64,000 bases of DNA from Candidatus Omnitrophota bacterium (GTDB lineage: Bacteria > Omnitrophota > Gorgyraeia > Gygaellales > Profunditerraquicolaceae), in assembly GCA_023227985.1 (NCBI GenBank), contig JALOCB010000003.1:5260-69259 (forward strand), written 5' to 3'. Made by a program: the position numbers and the translations under genes. Shown piece after piece: positions 1 through 35,776 of this stretch (positions are counted from its first letter, which is position 1; each line of letters starts with the position of its first letter). Below the pieces are notes generated by a model. It ran no database searches and had not been told where the DNA came from. It worked only from the letters and a program-made list of their open reading frames with translations.

Positions 1-3
1 AGA

Positions 4-3000
4 ATGATCCAGCGTCTGGCTATTAATAATGGTACTGCCCACGGCAATAACTATGACGCTGACGGTAAACTTATTGAAACACAGATGAATTTGAAGATGA
101 CCGCGGCGATCGCCGAAGTTATTAAGGCGTATGGTATACAGATAGTCCAGCACGGCGTGACCGGAACGCCTATTAAAAATCTCCAGGCATTGCGTAATGT
201 CGGGATCAGGGCCGCTCATGTCGGGACCAATTGGCAGAATATTATTTGGGAAACTTTAGTTGCCCAGGCGCAGGCGGGTAATTCGACCGCTAAGTCCATA
301 GTAAACCGGATGATCGATGCGACTATCGCTAAGACTGCGGACGTGGAGAAGAAGTATAAAGTATCCGGCCGAAGCGCAGAAGCCAAGGATAGCGTTTATG
401 TCCCGGGAAAAGACAAGAACCTGGACAAGCTGATCGGTAAAGAATTAAAGATGGTATTAGGTGTTTTCAACGACGAGTTGGTTGCTCTTCCTGATGACTT
501 GATTGCCAAGATTGATGAGGCCACCGAAAAATCCGCTACCGAGCATATGCTGGGTTTCGGTTCTGACGGAACAGCCCAGATGGTAAAGGATGATTATGCG
601 GTTCAGGGGTTGGTTTATCCTGAAGATTTCTCCTCGATCAAAGGATTATATGCCTTTAAGGCGCTCGAAGGAACGGATAAGACGATTATGTGTTGTAATA
701 TACGTTCGCCTCTAAGCATTAGGGGTATTATGCGCGCGGCCCAAAAAACAGGCAGCGTGGTTATTTTTCAGCAGGCAATGAGCGAATTCGATTATACCTG
801 GAAAGGCGGCTATGCCCCGGAGAATGCGGCTAAGCTTGCCCGTAATATCAAAGAAGCTGCAAAAAAAGAAAATTTCCACGATTTCATGATTAAGGGCGAT
901 CATCTTACGGTTAAAGTTGATGATGCTTTCTTGAAGGATAAGGCGGCGCAGGATGCTGTTGCTGTGGTATTTGAGAAAATATTGGATGAACAGGATGTTT
1001 CCAAGCGGGAAGCATTGTTCAACGCTGCATCCAAAGACGAAGTTCTTTTAGCCAATGCCGGCGTAGCTAAAGCAATGAAAGCGGTAAATAAGGCTATGAC
1101 CTTGATCAAAGAAGAAGTTGCTTCGGATTTCACTGTTTTTGCTTTAGACGCGTCATTTATGCCTACCAGGCTTAATGTCCTGGTCAGCGCTTACCTGGCG
1201 GGGTTTATTCCCCAGGATGCAGGTTTGGAAGCTGAAGTTGGCGAGATTGGCGGAAAAGAAAATTCCACGGTTGCCGACGCGTTGGAATTCATTACCGGTA
1301 TCAGGTTCAAGGAAGAGGTTGTGGTCAGCCAGGGAGTGAAATATTCTCAGCTGGTCGGTCCGAGAAGGATCGGTGTTCTTACCGGCGGCGGACCTGCTTC
1401 CGGGCATAACGCGGTGATCGCGGCAATGGTCCGCGAAGCGGAGCAGCGGGGGATCGAGATCGTGGCTATCCCTGAAGGTTGGGCTGGTTTGACCAAGGAT
1501 GAAGTAGCCGCGCAAGCCAAGGTTATAACTATTAAAGATGTGGAAAAGTGGGGGAAGAAAGGCGGCACAATGCTGGGGACCAGCCGCACCAATCCGTATA
1601 AGAAAGAAGGGGACGCCCAGAAGGTTTGGGATAATATCCAGAAGTTAAAGCTTGACGGTCTGGTAACTCTCGGCGGTGATGATACCAACGGGGTTACTTC
1701 CAAACTGCAAAAAGAACATCCGGATTACTTATTCATTGGTCTGCCTAAGACCATGGATAATGATATAGCGCTTCCGGAGAGTGACGCGCAGACCTATGGT
1801 TTTGACAGCTTTACCGTCAAGGCCTCTGAATCGTTCGAGGCTGGAAAGATTGACGCGCAATCTACCCATAGGATACTGATCGCTGAAGTTTTTGGAAGGG
1901 CGGCCGGATTCGTTTCTGCGCGTATCGGGGCCAATATAGGGGCTACCCGCACACTGATCCCTGAAGAATTGGTTGATCTTTCAAAGTTAGTCGAGGATCT
2001 GCGCAGCTATTATAAGAATAATAAATACGGGGTTGTTGTGGTTGCCGAAGGGGCAAGCGTCAATGTTGATGGTTTCAAACTGGATGAAAACGGGGAATTG
2101 ACAGTTGTTAAGCCCGAAGACCCGGATGTAAAATTGTTGCTGGCCGCATTTAAGAGCGATCCTATGGCCAAAGCGGCTTTTATCAAGTCTATGAAAGCCG
2201 AGATGGATGATTTTGGCCACAAAAAACTGGAGAATGTCGGTCTTATTGTCGCAGCTGTGGTAAAAACCGCGTTAAAGGCGGATAAGATCGATATTAGCTT
2301 CGCCGGTAAAGCGGATTATCTTTTTCGCTCCGCCGATGTTTCCAAATTGGACGCTGAAATGACCACTATGCTGGGGAAGGCCGCTGTGGAGAAGATCGCG
2401 GATATCCAGAATGATCAGTTGCTTTACGCTTACAAGGGGCAGATTAAATCCATACCGTTTGCCCGGGAATTAGGCGGAAGGGTCCTGGATTACAAAGGCG
2501 CCCATAAAGATGAATATATGTTGGCCAACCTGGCGCTTATTGATGAAAAAACTGAAATAACGCTTTCGGATGCATCGGTTAATGAGGACTTGTTCCAGGC
2601 AGCGGTTAGAAACTTAAAAGGACTTAACCCGGGCGAATTAATGACTCTGAGTTTTTCGGAGATGAAGGTTTTGTTATGGAAGCTTAATAGCCTTGATCAA
2701 GAAACCGGGGACAATCAGGAAGTAGTTCAGTCTGTCAGAAGGATTCTGCATAGGATAGACGACAGGCAGATAGAACAGGTCAAGAAATTTGCCAATATCG
2801 GCGTGTTTGCCCGAGAAAATACTGCGTATAACCTGGAATCAGTGCTTAAGGATGACAATATCCTGGTTATCGCGGCTAACGCGCTTATTTTTCGCGCCGG
2901 AGCCTTTGCCGAATTCTATCATAATTGGGAGCCGGGAGTTAACCTCGCGGCGATCAAGTCTATGAAAGGCGGCAAAGAAGCTACTGCCGAGGAATTTGTC

Positions 3001-4767
3001 CGGCAGAACAGCCGTTATAACGGACCTTTTAGCCCGTATCAGTTAAAAGGTTTGCGCGTGCTTAAGGATGAACGCCGGGTGATTGATGGTGTCGCTGTTA
3101 ATTTCATTTTCGTGCCCGCGGATAAGAATATCGGAAGGCCGGATATCAAGATACCATATTTCGGCCCGGAAACAACTAACCAGCAGGTGCTTGATACTAT
3201 GAAGGCCTTAGGTTTAGAGTTGGATGTCATGGCCTATTACGGCCCGACCAGCGAAACGGTTCAGCCCAGGATATTCAAGGAGTTCATTGAGGCTGGATTG
3301 CCTGTTGTAGCAGCTTCTCCGGTCAACACCGACGCTGTAAAAAATATGCTCAAAGCTAAGTTTCAGCAGGAAGGTGTTGCGGATGATATGCTGGATGAAG
3401 CGGTGAGTAAGGCTTTTAAGGAAGGTTTGTATTCCGCTACCCGTAAAGAAATCGGCGCGGATGTCAAGATCGTGGATACTTTAAGCTGCACTTCCAATGC
3501 CATGATTTCGGTTATTAAAGCAATGTGGGATAAGTTCGGTATCGATCATGGTACCGGCCTGACTATTCATTCCCAGACTGATTCCAATGAGACTTTCCCG
3601 ATGAAAAGCGGCAGGGCCAGGGATCCCCTGGATATCGCCCGCGGCGATTCCATCCGTGACAACATAATCCCTGCTTCAACCGGCGCAAAAAAGAACCTCT
3701 TTAAGATGATCCCGGAATTAAAAGGCAGGTTCGAGATCACCGCTGTTCGCACCGGTACTGTTTCGGCTTCGACCTGGGAGATGACCATGGACCTTAAGAC
3801 TGAAGTGACCAGGGATGATGTCCTTGCGGCTTTAAAGGATTTCGCCCTGAATAAGACCGACGGGGTGGTGAAATTTCACGAAGGAGACCCGGACAGGAAT
3901 CCCGGGCCTCTGGACGCCAACGCCGTGGTCGGCTGGAATAATGTTTCTATTATCGACAGTTTATTGATCAATGTTCTGGATAATAAGAAAACAGTGACTA
4001 TTAAAGGTTTGTATGATAACCAATCAGCGGCGCCGAATCAAATGGTTTCTAAATGGTCGCCGTGGATGGTTGACGGTTTAAGGCTGCGCCAGATAGTCGG
4101 CGAAAAGAACAGCAAAAAGCTGAACAAAGCCGAAGCTGTAGCGTATGCCAAACTCAACGCCGGTTATGCCGGCCTGCTTAAAGCCGTAAGCGCGGTAAAA
4201 ACCAGCGGAGCTCTGGTGGTCAGCGCTGACGTGGTCTTAAAGAACGCCGGGACGCTTTCATCGCTCAAAGCCTTGAAAGAATCAGGCGCTCTTATTGAGA
4301 TCATTGTCCAGGCGAACAACAAGGCTGTCGCTGATAAAATGGTATCAATGGGCGTTGAACAATTCGCGAGCATTCAGTTCAAGCAGGTTAACGCGATAGT
4401 AGAAGAGTTGAATACCAAAGGTATAACTGATGAAAGAATAGTAGTGCTTAAGACCAAAGCTGAATCGAAAGAAGAAGTCAAGAATACCGTCAAGGTGGTC
4501 AATGTCGGCGAAGCTAAAGTCGCCGAATCTTCTGTTAATGCCATGTCGATAGCAGTGGCAAAGGCAGTAACCACCGTGTTGCAGGATAATACGGAGGTTG
4601 TTGATCAATATCAGCAGATGGCGAAGAATTACGCCGAAGCTAACGACGTCGAGCTAAGCAAACTGGAAGATCTGACCAGCCAGATCTCGGATATGCCGCT
4701 GGTTAAGGTGAGCGAAGAAGTGGTCAAGGCTCAGGTTACTTACGAAGAAACTGTAAACAAGATCTAA
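4..4767 (+). CDS. Giant multidomain glycolytic fusion protein, 5'-partial (N-terminus lies upstream of the window). Domains in order: class II aldolase C-fragment, complete class II fructose/tagatose-bisphosphate aldolase, PPi-type phosphofructokinase, about 100 aa unassigned, divergent GAPDH, shared C-terminal module.
   Basis: The first ~95 aa match an aldolase C-fragment (GTAHG, IVQHGVTG, VGIRAAHVGTNWQ). Aldolase motifs: EAEVGEIGGKEN, SPLSIRGIMRAAQKTGSVVIFQ. PFK motifs: GVLTGGGPASGHNAV, LGGDDTNG, PKTMDNDI, EVFGRAAGF. GAPDH motifs: LSCTSNAMISVIKAM, TIHSQTDSNE, RGDSIRDNIIPASTGAKKNLFKMIPELKGRFEITAVRTG. C-terminal ~190 aa are near-identical in layout to the ORF2 C-terminus. Confidence 0.8.
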   Translation: MIQRLAINNGTAHGNNYDADGKLIETQMNLKMTAAIAEVIKAYGIQIVQHGVTGTPIKNLQALRNVGIRAAHVGTNWQNIIWETLVAQAQAGNSTAKSIVNRMIDATIAKTADVEKKYKVSGRSAEAKDSVYVPGKDKNLDKLIGKELKMVLGVFNDELVALPDDLIAKIDEATEKSATEHMLGFGSDGTAQMVKDDYAVQGLVYPEDFSSIKGLYAFKALEGTDKTIMCCNIRSPLSIRGIMRAAQKTGSVVIFQQAMSEFDYTWKGGYAPENAAKLARNIKEAAKKENFHDFMIKGDHLTVKVDDAFLKDKAAQDAVAVVFEKILDEQDVSKREALFNAASKDEVLLANAGVAKAMKAVNKAMTLIKEEVASDFTVFALDASFMPTRLNVLVSAYLAGFIPQDAGLEAEVGEIGGKENSTVADALEFITGIRFKEEVVVSQGVKYSQLVGPRRIGVLTGGGPASGHNAVIAAMVREAEQRGIEIVAIPEGWAGLTKDEVAAQAKVITIKDVEKWGKKGGTMLGTSRTNPYKKEGDAQKVWDNIQKLKLDGLVTLGGDDTNGVTSKLQKEHPDYLFIGLPKTMDNDIALPESDAQTYGFDSFTVKASESFEAGKIDAQSTHRILIAEVFGRAAGFVSARIGANIGATRTLIPEELVDLSKLVEDLRSYYKNNKYGVVVVAEGASVNVDGFKLDENGELTVVKPEDPDVKLLLAAFKSDPMAKAAFIKSMKAEMDDFGHKKLENVGLIVAAVVKTALKADKIDISFAGKADYLFRSADVSKLDAEMTTMLGKAAVEKIADIQNDQLLYAYKGQIKSIPFARELGGRVLDYKGAHKDEYMLANLALIDEKTEITLSDASVNEDLFQAAVRNLKGLNPGELMTLSFSEMKVLLWKLNSLDQETGDNQEVVQSVRRILHRIDDRQIEQVKKFANIGVFARENTAYNLESVLKDDNILVIAANALIFRAGAFAEFYHNWEPGVNLAAIKSMKGGKEATAEEFVRQNSRYNGPFSPYQLKGLRVLKDERRVIDGVAVNFIFVPADKNIGRPDIKIPYFGPETTNQQVLDTMKALGLELDVMAYYGPTSETVQPRIFKEFIEAGLPVVAASPVNTDAVKNMLKAKFQQEGVADDMLDEAVSKAFKEGLYSATRKEIGADVKIVDTLSCTSNAMISVIKAMWDKFGIDHGTGLTIHSQTDSNETFPMKSGRARDPLDIARGDSIRDNIIPASTGAKKNLFKMIPELKGRFEITAVRTGTVSASTWEMTMDLKTEVTRDDVLAALKDFALNKTDGVVKFHEGDPDRNPGPLDANAVVGWNNVSIIDSLLINVLDNKKTVTIKGLYDNQSAAPNQMVSKWSPWMVDGLRLRQIVGEKNSKKLNKAEAVAYAKLNAGYAGLLKAVSAVKTSGALVVSADVVLKNAGTLSSLKALKESGALIEIIVQANNKAVADKMVSMGVEQFASIQFKQVNAIVEELNTKGITDERIVVLKTKAESKEEVKNTVKVVNVGEAKVAESSVNAMSIAVAKAVTTVLQDNTEVVDQYQQMAKNYAEANDVELSKLEDLTSQISDMPLVKVSEEVVKAQVTYEETVNKI

Positions 4768-4773
4768 CATTCT

Positions 4774-4828
4774 CAAGACCCGGTCTTGCATCCCAATGAG
4801 TCCTAATGGGTTGCAAGACCGGGTCTTG
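4774..4828. repeat. Paired 15-bp GC-rich palindromes forming a ~55-bp imperfect inverted repeat between megagene 1 and megagene 2. First copy CAAGACCCGGTCTTG at 4774-4788, second copy CAAGACCGGGTCTTG at 4814-4828. Candidate transcript-processing, attenuator or REP-like hairpin.
   Basis: Read directly. The two 15-mers are reverse complements of each other and flank the partial palindrome CCCAATGAG-TCC-TAATGGG. The same 15-mer recurs at 12744-12758. Confidence 0.6.
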
Positions 4829-4925: not shown

Positions 4926-7900
4926 ATGTTCGTAAGGTTATCCCAAAACAACCTGTTCAGGAAGATCGTCGGCATTCTTATTCTTTTACAATTTTCAGCC
5001 GGTTTTGCCGTGATTAGGGGTTATGCTGCTCCCGGAAATTTGCGGCCTGCCGCCGTCAAACAGGATGGTTCCCGGTCCGGGACTATCCAGAATTCGCTTG
5101 ACGCGGCCAGCCTGGATAAGGTTATAAAAACCCCGGTCATTCATAAGGACGGCGGTATAACCGGCCAGGATGTTTTTAAGAATATCCTTGGCGAATACCG
5201 TGTTTCCTCCACGATAAACAATCTCGCTTTCGGGACGTTCGTCCAGGGGCAGATCGACCTTAGTTCGGTTCAGAACCGGGAAGCGCTGGTCAATAATTTC
5301 GGGGAGATTAAGAGCAAAGATCGTTTTTTTACCCTTGAATACGCGGGAATTCCGCTTGCCCTGGTCAAGAAGGCCGAAACCGGAGAAATTACCGTCAAGA
5401 AAGTAGTCGAAGACATTGCTTCGATCCCGCTCAACATCCTTTCCGACAATGCCGAAAAGCTCAAAACCGAAGGTGTTACTTCCTCGGATATCCTGGTCCG
5501 CGATTTTCTTATCCTTGAAAAAAGGTCGCGTATCGACATCACTCAGTGCATGACCGTAGAGTTTGGCGAGCTGCGCGACTACGTATACAATCTGGCTAAA
5601 AATGTCGGCCAGGAAAAGGCACTGGAGATGGCATCGGCGTTTGCGGGTAAGGCTACCGTTGACGAGGCTATGGCGGAAGTCGGCGAGAAAGCTAAGCAGT
5701 TAGGCCGCGACCAAGCGAAGGACACAGGTCTGGCGCTGGCCGGCGGTAAGGGTTTGAGCCTTTCGGTCATGAGCCGCGTGGTTGACGTGCCGCCTGGTTT
5801 GAACGTTACTACTACCGCGTATTTTAAGTTCGTCAAAGATAATAAACAGGTCTGGGAGAAGATCTTTAATGAGCTGCAGACCTTGGATACTATGGATGAC
5901 CAGAAGCGCGACGTTGTCACTTCGGAGATCCGCGATGTCATTAAAAGCGCGCCGATACCCGAAGACATCAAGGCTGAGGTAACAGCAATGTACCACCAGC
6001 TAAGCGTTATCCGTTTTCTTGCCGGTAAACCTTCGCCCGCTCCGGTGGCTGTCCGCTCTTCCGGCACCAAAGAGGATATTCACGTTAAAACCTGGCTGCC
6101 GGTTTCCACCGGTTCCCAGGCCGGCCAGTCGGATACATTCCTTAATGTTAAGGGCGAACGGGATGTCCTGGATAAATTACGCGCCGATTGGGCGTCTTTA
6201 TTTACCGATCGCGCGGTCAGCTACCGTGATGACGCCACCTTCTTGCAGTTCTCTGGAGCCATCGATTTTAACGGTAAGACTTCTCAGGATGTCTATTGGG
6301 GGATCGTGGCGAAGCTTCGGGAATACTCCAAGAAACTGGATAAGCCTGAATATAACGTGTACGCTGACTTAATGAGTAAAGTCACCAGCCCTAACCCTGG
6401 GTCGGTGAGCCTGATGAACGCCATGGAGGAGATCCTGAGACAGGAATCGAATCCGGAGATGTCCAATGCCCTTGCCGTTCTGAAGAAGAAAGCAGAGGAG
6501 GTTGTGCATCCCGAACAGATCGGTATCGACGTTGTGATCATGCAGATGGCTAAGAGTTATCTTGCCGGCGTGCTTTTTACCGTCAATCCGGCGACCAAGA
6601 TGGCCGGTGTGGCCCAGTCGTTATACAAGTCATGGTATATGGGTGATGATTCGCTCGTGTACCGCGACGCGAAGACCGATATTATCCAGGGAACCAGGCC
6701 CATAGTGGTGAGCTTTGATGTGGCCTTCGGCTACGGCGAGAACGTAGTCGGCGGCAAGGTAAACCCGGACAAGTTCATTATGGGCACCTACGACGGCGAG
6801 AGCTGGTTTGTTATCGAGAAAAGCAAAGGCAATAAACTTATTCAGATGAAGGACGTGGAAGAAGTCATCGATCTCCTCAAAGACAAGATATCGGAAAAGG
6901 GCCAGCGGCAGCTCGCTATGACCGTGAAAGACGCGATCGCGTATGATGAGGTCGGCAAGCGGATCAACGGCATTATGGCGACCAAACTCTACGGTATCAA
7001 GTATCTTAAGGCGCTTGAGGGTAAAGAGGAAAGCGATAAAGACAAGAAGGCCCGCGTACAGGCTATCGCCAATGAGATTGCCGACATGGTCAAGAATAAG
7101 GTTTCCGAGGATGAAGTTGTCGCGTTCATCAAGGGTAACTTTGAGGTCGTTAACCGGAAGGGCTATAAAGGCATTCAGGAAATGGCGCTTTCGGGAGTGG
7201 TCAGGGAAGTGTTTGAGAAAGTCCAACAGGCCCAGGCTGAGACCGACCGGGGTATGTTTAAACTCTCAAAGCAGCTCGGCGATATGGGAAAGGCCGATAC
7301 GCTTATCCATATGATCAAGGAGGTTTGGGAGAATAAGGAATTTACTCTTTCCGACCGCCAGGCGATTCTTGACAAACTGAACCTTACCAACCAGGAATTG
7401 CGTAATATGAGTTACCTTATCCGCGCGCTGGTGGATAATAGCTTTACTTCAAATTATGAGACTACTTTAACCCACCAGGATACCTTTACTATGACCGATG
7501 ATCAGGCCCAGTATGTGGCGCGTATGGGTTGGGCGATCACCGAATATTATAAGGATGCCCGAGATATAGAGTATGCCATCGAGATAGATAAAACCGCTTC
7601 TTCCGACAAAGCGGTGAGGCTTTACGTTGTGGACGACCTGGGCAATGTCCAGGGAATGGACAATAATGGCAACCTGGTAACGGTGAAGTCCGAAAAGGAT
7701 AAAGCGCGTATAAAAGAAGCGAAGCTGCGCCTGTATAACGTGCAGGCCCGTCCGTATACCGCGGAATACTTGAAGGTGGATGTAATGCGCGCCCGGACCG
7801 AAGCGGATGAAAAGTGGCTTGAGGAGAATTCTCCTAAAGCGATTGCCAGCGGGACTAAGGGAGAGAACGCGACGCAGGGTTATGTGCTGGTGTTCGATCC

Positions 7901-10900
7901 TAACAAAGACGTTGCCTGGCACGCGGACCAGATCCGTCGTTTGAAAGCCGGAGATTTTACTGCGGAGGAAAAAGCCCAGATCATGGCTATGGGGTTTAAT
8001 CCCGAAGAGTATGGTTCAGGCAAAGAAAAGCAATTGTCGGTTATTCTTTATCTGCTTGAAGCTGACCCGAATCATGATCCGATCATGCGCCTGGTTGATT
8101 CGGTTGTTACTATCCGCGGCGGCGATACCTGCCACGCGGCTATCTTTTGCCGTGAACAAGGGATCCCTGCGGTCACCGGCGCGGGCAAGGTTATACTCAA
8201 CGGCCAATTGCTTAAGACCGGTGACGCGGTTACCGTTGATGCTAATAACGGGAATATTTACGAAATGCCCGCTGATGCCGGAGCGCGCATTCCGATCAAC
8301 TACGTGAAATTCAAGATTAAACCGTATGGCATCCCCGGCGACGACGACAATATGCCGTATCCGGGCATCGGCCAGATCATCGCCGCGGCAAGTGCCGCTC
8401 AGCAGAACTCGCCTATTATGCTTGCGGTTGACGCGGTCGGTAACTCGCTGACCCGCGCCGAGTTCAAAGGCGAAGAGATCGGTATCAACGTTTACGCCGG
8501 CTATGGCCATTATCTTTTACAGCAGATCAAGGCCGGAAAAATAAAGGAGCCAGTGAGGGTGCGTGTCCAGGAATTGATCCAGGGCAAGGTTCCCGGCGCA
8601 AAGAGGTTCGTGGACAATATTGAAAATGTTATGGCAGGCGCTTTTGCCAAGGATCCCGCCGCGCGTTCGGCATATCGCGACATTATGGGTAAGGATTTCA
8701 ATAAGGCGGATAGCCTGCAATTGCTGGAGTTTTTCGATTTGAAGAGCGACATTGAGCTGTATGGATTGGATGCGCTTAAACTGGTAAAACAGCAGGTTGA
8801 TATTCTTGATCTCGTTCCCCGGCTTCCGGAGAATATGTATCAGACGCTTGAATATCTTTATGGCGCCACTCAGCGCAGGCTCAACTATGATTATAATATT
8901 ATCGCCGATCTTCAGAACCATCCGTGGATACTGAAAGAAGTCGATTCTAAACTCGCGGAAAAGGGTTACGCGACGTTCAAGGAATACATCACTAACGAAT
9001 TCCTGTATTTTTACAATTTGATGGGTTTTACCATTGCGCCCGATCAGACCGCCAAGAACAGGGCTTACGATTTCGCCCAGGATAAGATCCGCGGCATGCC
9101 CGGTTCCGAGGTTTTTTCCTGGCCCGGAGTCAATCCGTTGGTCGGTTTGCGCGGTACGTCGTTGGAGATCGAGGCCTTTGACGAAGATTTCGGCGGCAAT
9201 CAGCTGGTATTGGATTTTCTTTTTGATTCCGTGATCCAGGCGCACCAGAATACCGGTAACCAAGCCTGGTTTTATGTGTTTGTCCGTTCTTCCCGGGAGT
9301 TAGAGACCCTGGATAAGATCATTGAGCACAAGGCTAAGCAGACCGGGAAGCTTCCGAAAGAGATCGGGATCATGATCGAAGTTCCCAGTGCCGCTTTGGT
9401 GGCTGATGAGCTTGCTGTTAAGATGTCCGAGATGGAGAAAAAATATAAGAAGTATGGCGTTGAGCATACTTTCTTTTCCTTCGGCACTAACGACTATTCG
9501 CATCTTGCTGGTATGGGTGACCGTGAAGACCCGCGAATGAAACTCAAGATTATGGATCCCGCAGCGATCGAAGCGATCGGCGAGATGAAAGCAGCGGGGT
9601 ATTATTATGATGATGCTGCTAAAGTGCTTCCGTTGATTGATGAAGGCGCTGATGTTATGCAGCAGCTTATGGAAACAGTGGTTGCTGCGGCTAATGGTTC
9701 AAGCGTGGCTACCTCGCTTTGCGGCGAGGCGATCACCGCCCTGGTTAACCGCGGGGATTATGAGACCGCAGGCAAGATAATGGCGCTTCTGGATTCTTTC
9801 GGCGTGAGCATGATGAAAGTCCGCCTCGCAGCTTCAATGACGCGCGTGGACACCATGGCGGCTACCAAAGGGATCACCATTCCGGAAGCCGGACGTTCGA
9901 TCCTGTTCGATTTGTCTGCCGGCGAGGTGAAACAGAAAAAGGGCGTCATCAAGGGCGAGATAATATTCGTTGATAATGCCGATGATCTCGTCCCGAACGT
10001 CCTTAAAGGCCTTCAGGGTCCGGAGCTGACGAAAAAGAAAGAGATGTTCAAGCTCCAGAGCCTGGAAAACGCCCGTTCGACTATGCGTACCTTCAATAAG
10101 ATCGTAATTATCACTAAAAACCTCGTTGCTCAGCAGGAGCCTGAGTTGGTCGCGGAGATGGGCAAAGCCGCATTCAGCAAGTTTGTCAATGACGGCCTGC
10201 TTAAAGATATCGGTAATGGGCAGTATGTCTGGACGAATCTGGGTGTAAAGACGGAGAAGTTCAACCAGGAATTGACAATTCAAGGTTTCTCTGAAAAAGA
10301 ACGTAAAGCTATTGAAGGTTTGTGGCAGAAGGCCTGGGATAACAGCATTGAAGGGCTTGAGCGCCGCGGAATTGATTGGGATGATCTACAATATGCCAAG
10401 GCTATAATCGTTGATGCGGACGTTAACCTTGATGGCTGGGATGTGTTCCGCAAGGACAAGAGTATTATTCCGACCCGTATCAAGGCTACGGTCAAAGGTA
10501 TAAGCTCCCGCCGTGCGGAGTTAGAAGGGCAATTGGCAACTATAGATTACGCCGCTAAGAAGGTCTACAAGGATTTTCTCAGCGTGGAAAAGATCGCTGC
10601 CGTCCTGCGCAGTCTTCCTATCCCAGCGGAAAAGCCTATGATAACTACGCAATCGGCTGTCGCGGAGAACGCCAACAGTGTATACCAGAAGATCGGGTAT
10701 CATCCTAAGCTCCTTCTTGCCTATGAGCGGAATGCTGTGAATGAACTTGGAAAGATATTCGAGGAATATGTAGGCAAGCTGGTTGAAGAAGTTGAAAAAG
10801 TTACTCAGGAGACCGACGTTCAGAAACGCGTATGGCTTTTACAGAAACTGCAGAATAAAGTTGGCGGGCTTGCGGAACCGATGATCAAATCGTTTATGAG

Positions 10901-12698
10901 CGATGTGCTTTCCGAGGCCATGCGCACAGGTGCGGTAACGCTGCCGGATAACTGGAACAAGAAGCTTTGGGAGGCCTATCGCAGCGACCTGGAAAGCGAG
11001 ATCAGTAAGATCCTTAACGGAAAGACGGTTGAGCAGTATTTTATCGCGCAGTTCAGCGAACAGATGAAGGAAGTGCTCTCCGCCAACAAAGGGGCATTGG
11101 TTGTCCATCTTTTGGGAAGCCTCAACTGTGTTGATTTCTTTAATATGAAAGGCGGTTTCCTGGTTGAACAGGTCAATCCCAACCCTGATTACGGCATTCT
11201 TGGAGCGGCGCGCGCAATAGGGGATATGTGGGAGATAAACCGCATGGAATTGTCCGCTTTTAAGGCGGTATGGGATAATCTGCCGGTTGACCAGCGCGGT
11301 AATTTTGGCCTGCAGATCACCAATCTCAAAGGCACCCAGTCCGGCGCGGTGGTGATCGGCTGGCGTAATATTCTGAAACAAACCGGTATTATCCCGGGGC
11401 AAGACGGTTTGCAGGTTGGCGTCAATATCGTCACTCCGGCGGATAGCATCGCTGCGGATAAGTATTTTGAGTACTTTAATACGCTCGGAAGCGGGTTAAG
11501 TTTTATCTCATATGATGCGTTGAAGCTTGGCGCTGCCTGGGCCGGCGTGGATATTTTTTGGAAGGAATGGAGGAGGCTGGCTAAGGAAGATGAGTTGTTG
11601 AGGTTCGGCGTCATGACCGGCTGGATGGCGGAAGCCAAGGCTCTGAGGTTCGGCGGCAAAGTCCTTTCCTTTGATATTTCTGACGAAGCCAAACAGACTG
11701 ACGGCGGCGCTGAGGTTGTGCCTTACCGGGTAGTGGTGGAGAATCTCTTCCGGGGGATCATTAAGAAATATGATGCTTTGGATAACGGCCAAGCTCTTTC
11801 TCTCGAAAAAGAAGAGTTGGAGGCAATACTCTGGATCTTGAATTCTTCTCCTTTTGAGAATATGTCAAGCCCGTTTGCCGCGATCAAGAGTATGAAGAAT
11901 ATCAGGAATGTGATCGAAAGGCTCAGCGATGACCAAAAGAAGGCCCTAAGTGTACTTTCACAGGGCTTGGTTTTTGTCAATCACGGGCTGGATAAAAAGG
12001 TGGCGGCATTGCTCGTAGACAAGAAGTTGCTCGACACCGCATATGAATCCGACACGGCGGTATATAAAGGGTTGAACAGCGGTTTTGACAGCTTCGCCAA
12101 TGCCTTGAAAGAGGTTAAGAATGCCGAGGGCGCTTTAGTGGTTAGCGCAAATGCTGTGTTGAATAACGCCGGAACGCTGAGAGTCCTGAGAGAAATAAAA
12201 GAAACCGGGCTGACCTTGGAAATAATCGTCCGGGCTGATACGGAAGATCAGGTGAATAAGCTGATTGCCCTTCGGGCAGACGAAGTCGCGACTATCCAGG
12301 CCAAGCGGCTGTCAGTTGTGCTCAGCGGCTTGAAGAACGCGGGTATAACCGATGGCAAGATAGTGGTGATTAAAGGCAAAGAAGAAGTAAAAGACGCGGT
12401 AGAAGCCGGCGTAAAGGTCGTAGAGATCTCCATGCCTAAAACAGAGGAGTCCAGTATCAACTCCATGGCCTTAGTTGCGGCAAAAGCGGTAATCATAGTG
12501 TTAAATGGTGAAGAAACGGTTGCCGCGCAATACCGGGAAATGGCGGTAAAATACGCCGCAGATAACAGCGTAACCTCTGAAGAATTGGATGATCTGCAGG
12601 ACCTGACCAGCCAGATCTCGGAGATACCCATGGCCAAGGTCAGCGAAGAAGTCGCTAAGGCGCAGGCCACTTATGAGGAGACTATAAGCAAGATATAA
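4926..12698 (+). CDS. Giant 2590-aa fusion protein. Domains in order: N-terminal leader, unknown N-domain, pyruvate phosphate dikinase/PEP synthase-like domain, ~730 aa unassigned region, shared C-terminal module.
   Basis: RBS GGAGGG 7 nt upstream of the ATG. PEP-utilizing enzyme motifs: ALAGGKGLSLSVM, VAVRSSGTKEDIHVKTWLPVSTGSQAGQSDTFLNVKG, GGDTCHAAIFCREQGIPAVTGAG, FSFGTNDYSHLAGMGDRED, SLCGEAITAL. The N-terminal leader RKIVGILILLQFSAGFAVIRGYAAPGNLRPAAVK is shared with ORF3. The C-terminal ~190 aa match ORF1 (GALVVSANAVLNNAGTL ... LTSQISEIPMAKVSEEVAKAQATYEETISKI). Confidence 0.8.
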   Translation: MFVRLSQNNLFRKIVGILILLQFSAGFAVIRGYAAPGNLRPAAVKQDGSRSGTIQNSLDAASLDKVIKTPVIHKDGGITGQDVFKNILGEYRVSSTINNLAFGTFVQGQIDLSSVQNREALVNNFGEIKSKDRFFTLEYAGIPLALVKKAETGEITVKKVVEDIASIPLNILSDNAEKLKTEGVTSSDILVRDFLILEKRSRIDITQCMTVEFGELRDYVYNLAKNVGQEKALEMASAFAGKATVDEAMAEVGEKAKQLGRDQAKDTGLALAGGKGLSLSVMSRVVDVPPGLNVTTTAYFKFVKDNKQVWEKIFNELQTLDTMDDQKRDVVTSEIRDVIKSAPIPEDIKAEVTAMYHQLSVIRFLAGKPSPAPVAVRSSGTKEDIHVKTWLPVSTGSQAGQSDTFLNVKGERDVLDKLRADWASLFTDRAVSYRDDATFLQFSGAIDFNGKTSQDVYWGIVAKLREYSKKLDKPEYNVYADLMSKVTSPNPGSVSLMNAMEEILRQESNPEMSNALAVLKKKAEEVVHPEQIGIDVVIMQMAKSYLAGVLFTVNPATKMAGVAQSLYKSWYMGDDSLVYRDAKTDIIQGTRPIVVSFDVAFGYGENVVGGKVNPDKFIMGTYDGESWFVIEKSKGNKLIQMKDVEEVIDLLKDKISEKGQRQLAMTVKDAIAYDEVGKRINGIMATKLYGIKYLKALEGKEESDKDKKARVQAIANEIADMVKNKVSEDEVVAFIKGNFEVVNRKGYKGIQEMALSGVVREVFEKVQQAQAETDRGMFKLSKQLGDMGKADTLIHMIKEVWENKEFTLSDRQAILDKLNLTNQELRNMSYLIRALVDNSFTSNYETTLTHQDTFTMTDDQAQYVARMGWAITEYYKDARDIEYAIEIDKTASSDKAVRLYVVDDLGNVQGMDNNGNLVTVKSEKDKARIKEAKLRLYNVQARPYTAEYLKVDVMRARTEADEKWLEENSPKAIASGTKGENATQGYVLVFDPNKDVAWHADQIRRLKAGDFTAEEKAQIMAMGFNPEEYGSGKEKQLSVILYLLEADPNHDPIMRLVDSVVTIRGGDTCHAAIFCREQGIPAVTGAGKVILNGQLLKTGDAVTVDANNGNIYEMPADAGARIPINYVKFKIKPYGIPGDDDNMPYPGIGQIIAAASAAQQNSPIMLAVDAVGNSLTRAEFKGEEIGINVYAGYGHYLLQQIKAGKIKEPVRVRVQELIQGKVPGAKRFVDNIENVMAGAFAKDPAARSAYRDIMGKDFNKADSLQLLEFFDLKSDIELYGLDALKLVKQQVDILDLVPRLPENMYQTLEYLYGATQRRLNYDYNIIADLQNHPWILKEVDSKLAEKGYATFKEYITNEFLYFYNLMGFTIAPDQTAKNRAYDFAQDKIRGMPGSEVFSWPGVNPLVGLRGTSLEIEAFDEDFGGNQLVLDFLFDSVIQAHQNTGNQAWFYVFVRSSRELETLDKIIEHKAKQTGKLPKEIGIMIEVPSAALVADELAVKMSEMEKKYKKYGVEHTFFSFGTNDYSHLAGMGDREDPRMKLKIMDPAAIEAIGEMKAAGYYYDDAAKVLPLIDEGADVMQQLMETVVAAANGSSVATSLCGEAITALVNRGDYETAGKIMALLDSFGVSMMKVRLAASMTRVDTMAATKGITIPEAGRSILFDLSAGEVKQKKGVIKGEIIFVDNADDLVPNVLKGLQGPELTKKKEMFKLQSLENARSTMRTFNKIVIITKNLVAQQEPELVAEMGKAAFSKFVNDGLLKDIGNGQYVWTNLGVKTEKFNQELTIQGFSEKERKAIEGLWQKAWDNSIEGLERRGIDWDDLQYAKAIIVDADVNLDGWDVFRKDKSIIPTRIKATVKGISSRRAELEGQLATIDYAAKKVYKDFLSVEKIAAVLRSLPIPAEKPMITTQSAVAENANSVYQKIGYHPKLLLAYERNAVNELGKIFEEYVGKLVEEVEKVTQETDVQKRVWLLQKLQNKVGGLAEPMIKSFMSDVLSEAMRTGAVTLPDNWNKKLWEAYRSDLESEISKILNGKTVEQYFIAQFSEQMKEVLSANKGALVVHLLGSLNCVDFFNMKGGFLVEQVNPNPDYGILGAARAIGDMWEINRMELSAFKAVWDNLPVDQRGNFGLQITNLKGTQSGAVVIGWRNILKQTGIIPGQDGLQVGVNIVTPADSIAADKYFEYFNTLGSGLSFISYDALKLGAAWAGVDIFWKEWRRLAKEDELLRFGVMTGWMAEAKALRFGGKVLSFDISDEAKQTDGGAEVVPYRVVVENLFRGIIKKYDALDNGQALSLEKEELEAILWILNSSPFENMSSPFAAIKSMKNIRNVIERLSDDQKKALSVLSQGLVFVNHGLDKKVAALLVDKKLLDTAYESDTAVYKGLNSGFDSFANALKEVKNAEGALVVSANAVLNNAGTLRVLREIKETGLTLEIIVRADTEDQVNKLIALRADEVATIQAKRLSVVLSGLKNAGITDGKIVVIKGKEEVKDAVEAGVKVVEISMPKTEESSINSMALVAAKAVIIVLNGEETVAAQYREMAVKYAADNSVTSEELDDLQDLTSQISEIPMAKVSEEVAKAQATYEETISKI

Positions 12699-12778: not shown

Positions 12779-15700
12779 ATGTCCAGGCCGTCTAAAAACA
12801 ATAGTATCTCTAAAATAATTTCCGGCGTTGTGATCGCGCAATTTATCATGAGCAGTATAGCCCTGCGCGGTTATGCCGGCACAGACAATTTAAGGCCGGC
12901 TCCGGTCAAAGATTCCGACCGGATAAGCGTTCTGGCCGATGAATTGCAGAAAGACGGCGGCAAACTGGCTGAATGGATCCATATCTTAGCGGAAAATACA
13001 ATTGTGGGCGATGCCGCTAAAGGTTCGAACGTCGGCATGGTCATACGGCTGGGAAAGCTTGTTGAAGAGAATATATCCGGGTCCATATTAGGGCATTCGG
13101 CAAACCGGAAGGCGTATATAAAGGAAGTGGGCGCTCAAATCGCTGAAGGGCTGCGTTTGACCGGAATGGAAGAAAAGGCGATCGCGGCTGCCAGCCGCAA
13201 GATAGCTTTTTCCAGATACGATAACATCATGAATCACCGGATCCAGGCGATGTTTCAAGCAGGGATCAGGGAGATCTGCCTTTGCGTAGGCAGTGATAAG
13301 GATAAGCTCACCGTTGAGGAAGAGATATCGGATGTGCTTGCGCAGTTGCAGGTGTCTTTTGCCGATGTCTCTTTGGAACAAATAAAAAAGATAATTTTCC
13401 ACGTGGCTTGGGAGCCTGCGGCGAATATCGGCACCGGTACTGCTGTCGGTCCGGAAAAGATCAAGCTGGTCCATCAGGCTATCTATGAATTCTTTGCCGA
13501 GAAGTATAATACACCCTCCGGGTATATCGGCGATGTTTGGGGGAAGTCATTGAAAATACTTTACGGCGCAAGCGTTGACGGAAAGAACGTCGACGGCATA
13601 ATGGCGGTGAAAGAGGATAAAGGCATGGCTTTGGTGCACGGCGTGTTATTCGCTTCTTCGGGTAAAAAGGCCGATGGCTTCCTGGCTGTGGCCGAGGGGG
13701 TTAGCCGCGCCGCGGAAAGGGATAACGCCCAGTATGTCTGTTTTGTCAACCTTAAGGAATTCGCCAGGGCTGAGAAAGATGAGGCTTTGACTTTTGTCGT
13801 CGAGATCGTCCGGGCCATTGCTTTAGGACGGATCGATCCCCGGCATACCATTCTGGCGATCGCTGACCAGGATGTACATCTAAAGGAGTGGCAGGACGCG
13901 ATCGTCGGCAGAAGCGTTTCGATGTCGGACGGCGGATACGCGTATGTTGAAGGAACGAACTTTAAGGACAAGAATGTGCTTTTTCGCCCGGATTATAACA
14001 CTCCGGCTTCGGTAAAGACCGATGATCAGGGTAATGTTTTGTCGATCAAAATATCCGACGCAAGCAGGATCGTTGATTCCTTCCCGGCTTTGACCAAGAT
14101 CCTGAAAGATAAGCCAAAACATGTGGTTGTCGTTGTCCATTTCGAACCTAAGGTGTTGAATCCCGCGACCGGTAAGAAAGACAAGAAAAATCTGTCTACT
14201 AAAGTCACAGCGGACAAACTTAAAGAATTGCTGCCGGCGGAATATAAAGATAAGGTAATATTCCTGGCTGATTCAGTCAATGACAATGGGATTGCCGCCG
14301 AAGCAATGCGGGCTATAGAAAGTTATACTGATTCCGAGATCATCGTATTGGAAAATATCCGTTTTGCCAAAGGCGAAAAGAAAGGTGCCCCCGAGCTTAA
14401 TGATCCTAAAGGTGTAGCTTTACGCAAACAGCTTTCAGGATTAGCGGACGAATATGTGGTGGATGCCTTGGGTAATATTCATCGCGCCCACGCATCAATG
14501 CTGCCTTTGCCCGGGGTGCATAAAGTCATGGGCAGTCTTGTGGAAAAAGAGATTAAAGTGTTCAACCGGATACTTAACCCGGCGCATCCTTATGCCGGGG
14601 TTAACGGCGGTAATAAGGTTGAAGATAAAGTGGATACCATGGATGTGTCTTTGTCGACGATGCAGGAAGGCGACGCGATCATCATCGGCGGGGCTATGGC
14701 CTACACTTTTTTAAAGGCGCAGGATCCAACATTGAAATTGGGCAAATCACTTGTTCAGGCGGATAAAGTTGATCTGGCTAAGACTATACTTGAGAAGGCC
14801 GCCCGGAAGAAGGTGCGGATAATCCTTCCAGTGGACCATCGCATCTCGGATAAACTCGCTCCCGGAGCAGCAGAATTGGTTACTGAGGGGCTGGAAGTGC
14901 CGGATGGGTACATGGCGGTAGATATCGGACCCAAGACTGAAAAAATAGTCGCCGAGGTCTTAAGTAATGCCCAGACCGCTTTTTGGAACGGCCCAATGGG
15001 CGCGTTCGAGGATGAGGCTGGTGGTTTTAATAAGGGGACTTATACGGTTGCCAGGGAACTGCAGAAAATGGGCAGGTCCGGACGCCTGGCCGGTATCGGC
15101 GGCGGGGAGACACGTATGGCAGCAATTAAGGCCGGGGTTACCGATGCTGACGGCGTGTTCATGTCCAGCGGCGGCGGTTCCACGCAGGAATATTTCGCCA
15201 AGAAAGGCAATCTCCCGGTGATCAAGAATCTGGAGAATGACGAAACCGCCCAGAAAAATCTCGTCCTCGCGGGGAAATTGGGGGTAGAACCCGCGGATCT
15301 GGCGCGTTTTGAAGCGGCAGACAGCAGTATTTATAATGCCTTGGGAGATAAACTTTTCAACGGCTATATATCTCAGGTCAGAAGGTTGCTTCCCAGGTTT
15401 TCGACAGGCCAGAAATTAAACGGCGCTCTGTCCAAAGCAGAGGTCTCTGCGGAGGTGATTAAAGATTCGCGCGGAAACAATACTGTCCGGGCAACTTTAA
15501 AGATCGGGGATATTGTTACTGTCGGCGAAGTCCCTGCAGGCGCTTCCAAAGGGGCAGCTGAGGCTTTTGCTTTTCCGCCGAAGGAAATAGATAGGGCGAT
15601 CGCCAACGTGGCGAAGATCCAGGAGATACTTAAGAACAGCGGCCTGGATATAAGCAAACACAGCGATCTGCGCAAGACGGAACAATTGATCATTGCCGCG

Positions 15701-18826: not shown

Positions 18827-19549
18827 ATGGACATAAAAGAACGCAGGCAGGCAATAAGGTGGCAAATAAACAGCCCCGGGCAAATTGTTCTGGAGGACTG
18901 CCGGGCGTTAGTTAATTGCACTATACTTGATATAAGTTACCGGGGGGTCCAGGTATTGCTGGATAAACCTCTGGAGAATACCAAGTTATTCAAGATCAGC
19001 GTCGTACTTTCCGAGGAGTGCTACCTGGACAGCATCGACCTGCGCAGCGTCTGGCACAGGAAGGTTCCGGAAGGCGAGCTTTACGGCTTGTATTTTAACC
19101 GCATAAAAGACATAGATAAAGAGAAGATCTACAAATTTGTCTTTAAGCACGCACCAAGGCAAATACATCAACAGTGGTGGCAGGAATCTGACAAGGGGGG
19201 GGGTGAATCAATGGAAGATATGGGGACCAACGACAAGAGAGTCTTTGCGCGGTTTCCGGTGCAGATGGCTTTGAAATTCATTGATCTATTATCCAACAGG
19301 GAAGGCCAGGCGCATGCTTATGATATCAGCGCCAAGGGTTTGGGATTTATGGCGACCGAGGAATTAAAACCGCTTACACCGTTGGAGATGTGGCTACAGG
19401 TCCCGGATAAAGGGGAGCCGCTTTATACCAGAGGTGAAGTAGTCTGGTCAGAGATGGTCGAACCTAATAAATACAAGGCCGGGATCAATCTGGAAAGAGC
19501 GGACCTGATGGGTGTTTCCCGGGTTTTAAGGACCCTCAATACGATATAG
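18827..19549 (+). CDS. Tandem PilZ-domain protein, a putative c-di-GMP receptor.
   Basis: Two PilZ-like segments, each with an RxxxR motif followed by a D-x-S-x-x-G motif: RRQAIRW...LDISYRGVQV and DKRVFARFPV...YDISAKGLGF. Confidence 0.5.
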   Translation: MDIKERRQAIRWQINSPGQIVLEDCRALVNCTILDISYRGVQVLLDKPLENTKLFKISVVLSEECYLDSIDLRSVWHRKVPEGELYGLYFNRIKDIDKEKIYKFVFKHAPRQIHQQWWQESDKGGGESMEDMGTNDKRVFARFPVQMALKFIDLLSNREGQAHAYDISAKGLGFMATEELKPLTPLEMWLQVPDKGEPLYTRGEVVWSEMVEPNKYKAGINLERADLMGVSRVLRTLNTI

Positions 19550-19583
19550 TCTTGAGCTCAAGATCCCCACAGTAATAAAAGCC

Positions 19584-19612
19584 TTGACCAGGCAATTAAC
19601 CTGTGTTAAATT
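19584..19612 (+). promoter_or_regulatory. Candidate sigma70 promoter for the ABC transporter operon. TTGACC, 17-nt spacer, TAAATT.
   Basis: Hexamers read directly, about 70 nt upstream of the 19680 start. The RBS AGGAGGGG precedes the ATG. Confidence 0.3.
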
Positions 19613-19679
19613 CGAATATTGTCTTCATTAGCCATTTCTGTAATATTCTGTTATCTCGTTCATATTTAGGAGGGGAATA

Positions 19680-20996: not shown

Positions 20997-21006
20997 GGTT
21001 TAGCCA

Positions 21007-21921: not shown

Positions 21922-21925
21922 AAAA

Positions 21926-30126: not shown

Positions 30127-31688
<1,562 letters not shown>

Positions 31689-35774: not shown

Positions 35775-35776
35775 AA

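Follow-up and report, generated by a model that had tools for sequence, protein, structure and literature searches.

A predicted helical domain of no described family precedes a very divergent GAPDH in a glycolytic fusion protein of Omnitrophota

The DNA analyzed here, a stretch of 64,000 nucleotides from an uncultured Omnitrophota bacterium (hereafter, the window), begins within ORF1, a gene for a protein in which three glycolytic enzymes, aldolase, PFK and GAPDH, are fused in the order leader, permuted aldolase, PFK, helical module, GAPDH and C-terminal module. ORF1 is a single open frame up to nt 4767. The upstream sequence recovered from the source contig (full gene, L001:4821-9842) adds only 85 residues, mostly a hydrophobic leader. 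In the numbering used here, residue i of the window is residue i+85 of the full protein, and positions marked seg are counted from nt 2533. The protein P0001, with the source name Candidatus Omnitrophica, is identical to the ORF1 product, which is named “6-phosphofructokinase” at NCBI. The relevant features are the following.

nt 1..4767, + strand: ORF1, 5′-truncated at the window edge; full protein 1673 aa
nt 1..585, + strand: aldolase part A, whose start lies 53 nt before the window edge; full aa 68-280; Pfam profile positions 167-273
nt 613..1356, + strand: aldolase part B, full aa 290-537; motifs KGDH... and EAEVGEIGG
nt 1363..2535, + strand: PFK domain (Pfam PFK, window aa 456-702) carrying an insertion specific to the lineage
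nt 2536..2571, + strand: connector ALIDEKTEITLS, predicted coil
nt 2572..2847, + strand: six-helix module (~92 aa), full aa 943-1034
nt 2848..3468, + strand: NAD(P)-binding Rossmann domain of GAPDH, with insertions and a highly divergent sequence
nt 2872..2901, + strand: AANALIFRAG (seg 114-123), candidate replacement of GxGxxG, from alignment and secondary structure
nt 2953..2976, + strand: IKSMKGGK (seg 141-148), beta2 end and next loop, from alignment, secondary structure and hhalign
nt 3469..4104, + strand: GAPDH catalytic domain and C-terminal helix, Gp_dh_C
nt 4153..4764, + strand: ORF1 C-terminal module (~204 aa); phmmer of ORF1 against ORF2, E 1.4e-46
nt 11745..12017, + strand: second copy of the helical module, ORF2 (PPDK) aa 2274-2364; HMM match along the full model, E 3e-12
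nt 12072..12695, + strand: homolog, in ORF2 (aa 2383-2590), of the ORF1 C-terminal module

Directly upstream of the ORF1 cluster lies a gene for a protein of 14,046 aa. A stand-alone enolase and an iPGM are encoded within the same window, the former making the fused enolase, at least, a second copy, and no canonical gap gene is present among the scanned ORFs of the window or in the 10 kb downstream, the upstream side being occupied by the giant gene. All three fusion proteins of the cluster start with a leader that resembles a signal peptide or a membrane anchor.

The aldolase consists of part A, equivalent to the C-terminal third of a class II FBP aldolase and containing two of the three His predicted to bind Zn (in NGTAHGNNY and IVQHGVTG), followed by part B, which corresponds to the N-terminal two-thirds. 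In an alignment with an FBA from the PDB, residues 194-241 of the latter fall on full aa 122-171 (part A) and residues 93-165 on full aa 454-526 (part B); in the normal-order paralogs (P0013, P0014, P0015, P0023, P0025 and P0026), part B directly precedes part A. The class II FBA (PF01116) residues D385-H386 (KGDH), H99 (TAHG) and H136 (QHG) do not vary among 11 orthologs, and by motif analogy we take them to be the Zn His triad and the catalytic Asp. Judging from the alignment and the paralog order, parts A and B are one circularly permuted class II aldolase, equivalent to exactly one domain; the “two aldolase-family domains” of the earlier note are the PF01116 halves in swapped order, with no second complete domain. 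Nor does the N-terminal “aldolase C-fragment” represent an extra domain, given how little the recovered full gene adds beyond the leader.

The PFK domain carries the PPi-type signature (GGDDT, nt 1672-1686; PKTMDND, nt 1744-1764). The NCBIfam models NF002872 and NF041103 cover window aa 455-823 and 457-821, respectively, and conservation at the level of PFK extends to about nt 2535, not to nt ~1950 where the domain had been thought to end. Model coverage up to window aa 823 and conservation up to about nt 2535 leave an extra element of ~92 aa at nt 2572-2847, behind a connector without secondary structure (ortholog identity, 64%; mean pLDDT of the first 10-residue block of the model, 71). The earlier observation of an unassigned stretch between PFK and GAPDH holds, in that a real additional element outside all family models is present there, but its location does not: the range described as unassigned, nt 2700-2990, is about 130 nt off the true domain and combines the back half of the module with the first beta-alpha-beta unit of the GAPDH Rossmann domain.

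No Pfam or NCBIfam family covers window aa ~845-1150, and the module profile has no match among PDB sequences. In two independent AlphaFold2 runs, the predictions being based on shallow alignments (13 and 21 sequences), six helices (seg 14-29, 41-52, 59-72, 77-87, 90-94 and 97-105) are predicted at pLDDT of about 88-96, and the module modelled alone adopts the same fold (pLDDT 84). A fold search with the isolated module retrieved generic helical repeats only, with HEAT, TOG, VHS and CID-type alpha-helical domains listed as comparison. Two motifs, L-(S/T)-x-x-E-M-K-A-x-L-W-K-L and I-R-R-I, are kept across members that are just 23-29% identical, and, among the folded parts of the protein, the module varies most (54% ortholog identity, against 74% for the GAPDH N-domain and 20% for the true spacer in ORF1). 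According to these models, the module is a discrete folded domain of no described family.

In an exhaustive scan of 1.84 billion representatives, HMMER identified 10 clusters in which the module and the N-domain are located directly upstream of Gp_dh_C; a third homolog search with the family profile found nothing new. The enzyme that precedes the module and GAPDH is PFK, PGK (P0046), TIM (P0048, P0054) or GPI (P0050). The module HMM detects further copies in ORF2/PPDK, P0052 (E 7e-6) and P0030 (E 1e-3), each before the shared C-terminal module; the ORF2 copy directly precedes the C-terminal module of that protein and is retained in the orthologous PPDK of L002 (E 6e-15). Judging from this distribution, the module belongs with GAPDH, not with PFK. 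It is not strictly required by the Rossmann domain, since P0031 (iPGM-GAPDH) contains the divergent N-domain without the helical module.

Some PPi-PFKs bear long C-terminal extensions, and the segment could be taken for an extended C-terminal domain of a PPi-dependent PFK because it directly follows PFK, across a connector of just 12 residues, and because the PFK models reach further than the earlier note held. However, window aa 858-949 are outside all PFK models and solved PFKs, and the occurrence of the module before the same type of GAPDH after PGK, TIM or GPI, as well as in PPDK proteins that lack PFK, contradicts this reading, which the earlier note had named as the case against its own proposal and which we consider very improbable. 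A flexible low-complexity linker tethering two enzymes is hardly credible: the segment is indeed the least conserved region between the enzymatic domains and has no family match, but the six confidently predicted helices, the motifs conserved at an identity level of 23-29% while the true spacer is only 20% identical, and the recurrence of the module in another gene (PPDK) all argue against it.

In the catalytic domain of GAPDH, the motifs recognized earlier are all in place (SCTSNAM, nt 3484-3504; TIHSQT, nt 3562-3579; IIPASTGAKK, nt 3664-3693), with the catalytic Cys at nt 3487-3489 and the catalytic His at nt 3568-3570. Gp_dh_C (PF02800) is matched in Pfam at window aa 1170-1294 with 70 bits (cut-off 24.4), GAPDHs from the PDB match with E 2e-19, and the hhalign probability for the catalytic domain is 99.8%. 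The residues C319, H346, T349, R370, T383, R406 and N496 are invariant in 13 members that are only 35-47% identical; their canonical equivalents, Cys149, His176, T179, R195, T208-G209 (STG), R231 and N313, are all aligned and invariant. The TIGR01534 model scores 96.3 bits, compared to the cut-off of 367.2, and covers only profile positions 140-329, and Gp_dh_N (PF00044) stays without a match when the isolated N-domain is searched at E<=10. Because both models fail, membership of the ORF1 GAPDH in the canonical type I is uncertain, and loss or change of the cofactor is conceivable. In our searches, this divergent GAPDH was found only in multi-enzyme glycolytic fusion proteins, and all members named by source are from Omnitrophica.

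No GxGxxG is present anywhere in ORF1 before the GAPDH catalytic domain, and in both profile-profile and profile-sequence comparisons with canonical GAPDH the catalytic domain alone aligns, whereas the N-domain does not. Thus, the canonical NAD fingerprint is missing, as first noticed, including any equivalent of Asp32, but the description of the NAD domain as degenerate, that is, decayed or incomplete, does not fit the structural models: a complete Rossmann domain is predicted at pLDDT mostly 85-95, with two extra helices among its insertions (seg 266-294), and the predicted GAPDH structure matches solved GAPDH in a superposition that takes in 315 of 329 residues, with the S-loop region modelled at low confidence (pLDDT 43-52). 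AANALIFRAG forms the loop after beta1 and the first turns of helix A, and A114, N116, I119 and G123 are invariant within the GAPDH family. IKSMKGGK, in which K/R142, a small residue at 143, G146 and K148 are conserved, is located where canonical N31-D32 would be and lacks the acidic residue. This residue-level mapping of the NAD site, like the contact between the module and the Rossmann domain, relies on the secondary-structure register and on a non-significant hhalign comparison with canonical GAPDH N-domains (E 0.19), which is collinear at low confidence and places “AIKSM” on “AVNDL”. Additional invariant or near-invariant residues map to canonical NAD-contact loops (YGP 236-238, ASP 261-263 and N496), and by its conservation pattern the cofactor site is under selection.

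A different placement of the fingerprint, with a degenerate GxGxxG at “IGVFAREN” (nt 2797-2820) and “VIAANAL” as beta2/D32, was considered and rejected. AlphaFold2 makes this stretch a helix of the module; it is poorly conserved and is missing in P0031, which nevertheless has the N-domain; and the spacing to “NSRYxG” matches canonical GAPDH only with “ILVIAA” as beta1.

The C-terminal module common to ORF1 and ORF2 consists of an alpha/beta part followed by helices, ends with PLVKVSEEVxKAQxTYEETxxKI and has no Pfam or NCBIfam family. The possibility that it is a paralog of the GAPDH N-domain, given that “ALVVSADVVLKNAGT” resembles “ILVIAANALIFRAGA”, was discarded: the hhalign E value is 0.14, and an HMM of the beta1 region finds no C-terminal module.

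As the overall explanation, we propose, with a probability of roughly 70%, a helical domain joined to a complete, very divergent, active GAPDH with a rewritten fingerprint. The helical domain would be a lineage-specific N-terminal appendage of this GAPDH, which, by prediction and conservation, appears to retain both domains of the fold together with all of its catalytic and phosphate-binding residues. In the rewritten fingerprint, A-x-N-(A/G)-x-I-x-x-x-G would replace GxGxxG, and (K/R)-(S/G/T)-x-x-G-x-K would replace N31-D32. The unit is probably an active phosphorylating GAPDH, and the missing acidic residue, together with the conserved basic residues at the beta2 end, suggests that its cofactor preference has moved towards NADP(H) or dual use. 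The helical domain might be a rigid adaptor or a protein-protein interaction element that packs on the following alpha/beta domain and so could fix the mounting of the enzyme in the long polypeptide or in an oligomer.

Decay of the NAD domain with loss of cofactor binding, the GAPDH unit being kept as a scaffold in the fusion, would account for the absence of GxGxxG and Asp32, the undetectable Gp_dh_N, the TIGR01534 score far below the cut-off and the non-significant N-domain hhalign comparison, and the presence of a second enolase copy is compatible with such a pseudoenzyme. We nevertheless regard it as improbable because pseudoenzymes normally lose the kind of residues that are invariant here at 35-47% identity (catalytic Cys and His, the phosphate-site residues and N313), and because the N-domain is 74% identical among orthologs, with invariant residues at the NAD-contact loops and a full Rossmann fold predicted. 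We also give little credence to the module as a cofactor cap, under which a permanently bound NAD(P) would be buried so that the enzyme could function where little free cofactor is available, such as beyond the cytoplasmic membrane, as the leader would imply. The periplasmic glucose-fructose oxidoreductase, with its non-dissociable NADP, is a precedent for such an arrangement; the leaders on all three fusion proteins and a dinucleotide fingerprint that is rewritten yet conserved are in line with it, and the pTM of 0.88 suggests a fixed module-Rossmann arrangement in the model. Also in its favor, an Omnitrophota preprint reports glycolytic domains with a predicted extracellular location. Against the cap, PPDK, an enzyme without a known dinucleotide site, likewise has the module, ahead of its C-terminal module, and P0031 lacks it; moreover, a redox partner would be needed even for a bound cofactor, and the topology of the leader is ambiguous.

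A broader scenario, which also takes in the neighboring genes and which we consider doubtful, is that ORF1-ORF3 encode a second, self-assembling glycolytic pathway, membrane-tethered or exported and distinct from the housekeeping enzymes, of which the window would encode the stand-alone enolase and iPGM, with about seven enzymes on three polypeptides coupled genetically to the upstream giant “Archaeovorin”-type gene. Its common elements would be the leader (hydrophobic helix, NLRP, KDGG), the DGG-marked domain junctions and the six-helix module; the C-terminal module of ORF1 and ORF2 would be a docking module, the helical module would dock or cap, and the GAPDH cofactor site would be adapted to the assembly or compartment.

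Compared to type I phosphorylating GAPDH (GapA-like; PDB 7BEX, 1GD1 and 1HDG), the divergent GAPDH has no GxGxxG or Asp32, its N-domain, which contains extra helices, escapes Pfam Gp_dh_N and profile-profile comparison, the S-loop is longer by six residues, a ~92-aa helical domain is added in front, and the whole unit is part of a 1673-aa fusion far below the TIGR01534 cut-off. Substitution of D32 in GAPDH loosens specificity towards NADP, and the NADP-using GAPDHs of B. subtilis (GapB, 8WWZ) and Synechococcus (2D2I) and the engineered B. stearothermophilus D32G mutants (1DBV), all of which are among the Foldseek matches, likewise have no acidic residue at the beta2 end, where it would select for NAD. 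These enzymes, however, retain GxGxxG and an N-domain recognizable by Pfam, whereas in the ORF1 GAPDH, for which the cofactor preference is inferred, the fingerprint is replaced in its entirety, and K/R142 and K148, both basic, are specific to the family. The long-form GAPDH (NCBIfam NF006139/PRK08289, ~480 aa; PDB 8JB1) has an N-terminal extension.

Natural two-enzyme glycolytic fusions, such as Thermotoga PGK-TIM and stramenopile TPI-GAPDH, combine canonical domains through short linkers. Like these, ORF1 joins consecutive or neighboring glycolytic enzymes in one chain; unlike them, the proteins described here unite three to four enzymes in each chain and have folded modules between the enzymes, a circularly permuted aldolase, and a leader and a C-terminal module in common. 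Giant “Archaeovorin” and “multi-enzyme metabolic” proteins of Omnitrophota, with TIM, GPI, FBPase, FBA and PPDK domains in long proteins with a signal peptide or TM anchor, are reported in two preprints (bioRxiv 10.1101/2023.11.21.568195; bioRxiv 10.64898/2026.06.07.730766); the searched passages contain no description of the helical or C-terminal modules, the GAPDH unit or the aldolase permutation. Compared to the Archaeovorin giants, the present fusion proteins are of modest size, 1.5-2.6 kaa, and their cluster, in the same phylum, is directly downstream of the 14,046-aa gene. A literature search for an Omnitrophota glycolytic fusion with such a GAPDH returned general mentions only.

GAPDH is among the most conserved enzymes, and textbooks present its GxGxxG/Asp32 cofactor site as invariant. 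Retention of the residues that perform the chemistry, combined with replacement of the whole dinucleotide fingerprint and gain of a new folded domain, amounts to a natural experiment in the rewriting of a Rossmann site. Profile-based annotation detects only half of this GAPDH and, therefore, metabolic reconstructions of Omnitrophota may mis-score the ORF1 protein. More striking than the ORF1 segment itself is the surrounding system, with its shared leader peptides, shared C-terminal modules and the giant upstream gene. The helical and the shared C-terminal modules are previously undescribed units from which the multi-enzyme proteins characteristic of this phylum are built, and the binding partners of the modules would reveal whether glycolysis in these bacteria is assembled into a fixed machine and what its location in the cell is.

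ORF1, the aldolase-PFK-GAPDH fusion, is one uninterrupted frame from the window start to nt 4767; the full gene, taken from ENA ERZ27247363 k141_735648 (137 kb), encodes 1673 aa, 85 residues more than the window copy, and an identical protein in a public collection is named 'MAG: 6-phosphofructokinase [Candidatus Omnitrophica bacterium]'. Pfam and NCBIfam identify a class II aldolase, PFK (window aa 455-823) and the GAPDH catalytic domain (window aa ~1149-1349), with no match to either from window aa ~845 to ~1150 or after aa 1369. The GAPDH motifs quoted in the earlier note are present (SCTSNAM, nt 3484-3504; TIHSQT, nt 3562-3579; IIPASTGAKK, nt 3664-3693) and the GxGxxG that it could not make out is indeed lacking upstream of them, where the isolated N-terminal region has no Gp_dh_N match even at E<=10. 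The boundary that the note drew for PFK does not hold: the PFK models extend to window aa 823, and the orthologues keep the conservation level of PFK (83%) as far as about nt 2535, so that the unexplained element is shorter, and lies further 5', than had been thought.

An exhaustive HMMER search, with seg 1-311 as query (seg 1 = nt 2533 = full aa 930), covered 1.84 billion cluster representatives and matched just 10 clusters, every one a long protein. The matched stretch always lies immediately 5' of Gp_dh_C (Pfam), Gp_dh_N (Pfam) is absent from every matched protein, and the enzyme ahead is variously PFK, PGK, TIM or GPI. Given the constant domain after it and the changing enzyme before it, the stretch goes with this GAPDH rather than with PFK. 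An alignment of 13 GAPDH units, 35-78% identical to that of ORF1 (alignment A2), served as input for an AlphaFold2 model of the ORF1 unit (mean pLDDT 85, pTM 0.88, from this shallow alignment), which comprises:

seg 1-13, coil
seg 14-105, six helices
seg 108-113, beta1 'ILVIAA'
seg 118-130, helix A
seg 136-142, beta2, with the remaining Rossmann elements next
after the Rossmann elements, catalytic domain and C-terminal helix

From these modelled elements, nt 2700-2990, the range given in the earlier note, is predicted to span the second half of a helical domain (nt 2572-2847) and the first beta-alpha-beta of the GAPDH Rossmann domain.

The description of this NAD-binding domain as degenerate applies to its sequence, but not to its fold or conservation. 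In profile-profile comparison with canonical GAPDH, the alignment of the whole unit is confined to the catalytic domain, and the N-domains alone yield a collinear, low-confidence alignment (E 0.19). All canonical Rossmann strands and helices are nevertheless predicted by AlphaFold2, with pLDDT mostly 85-95, and N-domain identity among orthologues is 74%. Invariant in alignment A2 are A114-x-N116-x-x-I119-x-x-x-G123 after beta1, G146 and K148 after beta2, Y-G-P 236-238, A-S-P 261-263, N496 (= N313), the Cys and His of the active site, and every residue of the phosphate site. Of these, the residues after beta1 and beta2, Y-G-P, A-S-P and N496 appear to occupy loops that touch NAD in canonical GAPDH, where we infer the exact residue equivalences. 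Judging from predicted fold and conservation, the ORF1 GAPDH is most likely an active enzyme whose dinucleotide site has been rewritten. The position of canonical Asp32, the residue after beta2, is Ser, Gly or Thr, with Lys/Arg before and x-x-G-x-K after. In Rossmann enzymes and GAPDH D32 mutants, acceptance of NADP(H) is usually marked by this combination of conserved basic residues and no acidic one; by this analogy, we infer that the ORF1 GAPDH might accept NADP(H).

Neither Pfam nor NCBIfam matches the helical module at E<=10, and the profile of the module has no match among PDB sequences. Modelled alone (21 copies, shallow alignment), it forms the same six helices (pLDDT 84, pTM 0.77). 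By the module HMM, ORF2, the PPDK protein next to ORF1, holds a full-length copy (aa 2274-2364, E 3e-12), which is kept in the orthologous cluster, and P0052 and P0030 hold weaker copies, each just ahead of a common C-terminal module. The repeated copies and the stand-alone fold thus indicate a discrete, recurrent domain ahead of alpha/beta domains in these fusion proteins. With low confidence, we propose that it could be a rigid adaptor or an interaction element; a cofactor-capping role appears less likely. P0031, an iPGM-GAPDH fusion, has the divergent Rossmann domain and lacks the helical module. In this NCBI partial protein (908 aa), the cofactor-independent phosphoglycerate mutase is joined to the Rossmann domain via 'DESDGGTPTR', and GAPDH similarity ends after 'TIHAAT', followed by hydrophobic, TM-like segments; this architecture may reflect genuine variation, a frameshift or an artefact of assembly.

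The two aldolase domains previously suggested for ORF1 are instead a single, circularly permuted class II aldolase (+ strand, window 1-1356 and the 255 nt ahead of it, L001:4821-6431 on the source contig), in which the C-terminal third (full aa 68-280) precedes the N-terminal two-thirds (aa 290-537). This follows from the reversed alignment of solved class II aldolases (FBA 194-241 with full aa 122-171, FBA 93-165 with aa 454-526) and from same-phylum paralogs, ~50% identical, where the two pieces are adjacent in normal order (e.g., in P0025, residues 367-619 match ORF1 aa 294-537 and residues 620-836 match aa 65-281). In the aldolase-FBPase fusions P0016 and P0021, the two parts are ~450 residues apart. 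The predicted Zn ligands and catalytic Asp of the ORF1 aldolase are invariant.

All or two of ORF1, ORF2 and ORF3 (the TIM-PGK-enolase fusion) have further elements in common:

L001:4821-5010, just upstream of the window, N-terminal leader of ORF1
window 4926-5156, N-terminal leader of ORF2
window 12779-12961, N-terminal leader of ORF3
window 11700-11708, DGG site, ORF2 aa 2259-2261
window 13928-13936, DGG site, ORF3 aa 384-386
window 4153-4764, +, C-terminal module of ORF1
window 12072-12695, +, C-terminal module of ORF2

The leader, of the same kind in most relatives, consists of a basic start, a hydrophobic helix of ~20-25 residues with an A-x-A-G-like end, an 'NLRP'-type motif, (N/D/H)-L-R-(P/x), at about residue 37, and 'KDGG' near residue 60; in sequence, the leader resembles a signal peptide or signal anchor with an added sorting motif. 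DGG, usually (K/Q/R)-D-G-G-(S/A/T/V), is repeated at inter-domain junctions, also in many relatives: after the leader, ahead of the helical module, past GAPDH, and between TIM and PGK. In 43 proteins it occurs 51 times, vs 23.2 +/- 4.8 in composition-preserving shuffles, a count that includes non-independent orthologs and some TIM active-site motifs; DGG could mark a processing site or a hinge. The ~204-aa C-terminal module common to ORF1 and ORF2 (E 1.4e-46) has no Pfam or NCBIfam family and ends in the conserved amphipathic 'PLVKVSEEVxKAQxTYEETxxKI', whereas the C-terminus of ORF3 is only a marginal match (E 0.005). The two modules are closer to each other than that of ORF1 is to those of its orthologs (E 1e-15 to 1e-39), the nearest, P0002, excepted, which suggests co-evolution within a genome.

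ORF1 is followed by the genes for PPDK (2590 aa) and the TIM-PGK-enolase fusion (1507 aa) and preceded by a gene for a 14,046-aa protein. Another contig, with an ortholog 73% identical, has the same order: giant gene, ~510-aa gene, ORF1, PPDK, TIM-PGK-enolase. On two contigs with the 73%-identical ortholog, the giant gene is called as 30,339 or 19,746 aa. The N-terminus of the ~510-aa protein is hydrophobic too, and the protein has no confident match in Pfam. In ORF2, large insertions lie inside the PPDK_N match (aa 271-684 vs 282 profile positions), and the Pfam PPDK domains stop near aa 1602, so that some 650 residues ahead of the helical module have no assignment. According to passages of two preprints, giant Omnitrophota proteins with a signal peptide or membrane anchor carry glycolytic domains (bioRxiv 10.1101/2023.11.21.568195; bioRxiv 10.64898/2026.06.07.730766); those passages describe neither this GAPDH unit nor these modules.

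Around the cluster, the following features were recorded:

L001:1-3054 and 3259-4788, giant gene and ~510-aa gene, directly upstream of the cluster
L002:1-9987, the same region on the contig with the orthologous cluster
window 9732-11744, +, ORF2 stretch unassigned in Pfam, aa ~1603-2273
window 17400-18701, 433-aa ORF immediately beyond the glycolytic cluster
window 25218-29303, three ORFs in a row (384, 450 and 540 aa) that follow a GH2-like glycosidase
window 33465-34349, 294-aa ORF
window 42604-43863, 419-aa ORF
window 30393-31682, -, stand-alone enolase
window 47544-48830, +, ApgM-type mutase
window 41094-41166, tRNA-Thr

The 433-, 384-, 450-, 540-, 294- and 419-aa ORFs are sizeable and have no Pfam match at E<=1e-4. 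The genes at window 18827-25086 and 34986-44932 give a context of sugar use and fermentative energy conservation. Among them are those for a PilZ protein, the solute-binding protein and two permeases of a sugar ABC transporter, the GH2-like glycosidase with TPR, an MFS transporter, a ROK-family kinase or regulator, a LacI-family regulator and, on the - strand, Rnf complex genes (RnfB, RnfA/E-type, RnfD, RnfC).

The stand-alone enolase is canonical and has a far stronger Pfam Enolase_C match (E 2e-124) than the copy fused in ORF3, so that the fused enolase, at least, is a second, paralogous copy. The ApgM-type enzyme is a cofactor-independent phosphoglycerate mutase, the sole lower-glycolysis step absent from the three fusion proteins. 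The PFK of ORF1 contains GGDD (nt 1672-1686, +) and P-K-T-M-D-N-D (nt 1744-1764, +), a signature usually tied to PPi-dependent PFK. With PPDK also standing in for pyruvate kinase, the signature points to a glycolysis that would economise pyrophosphate.
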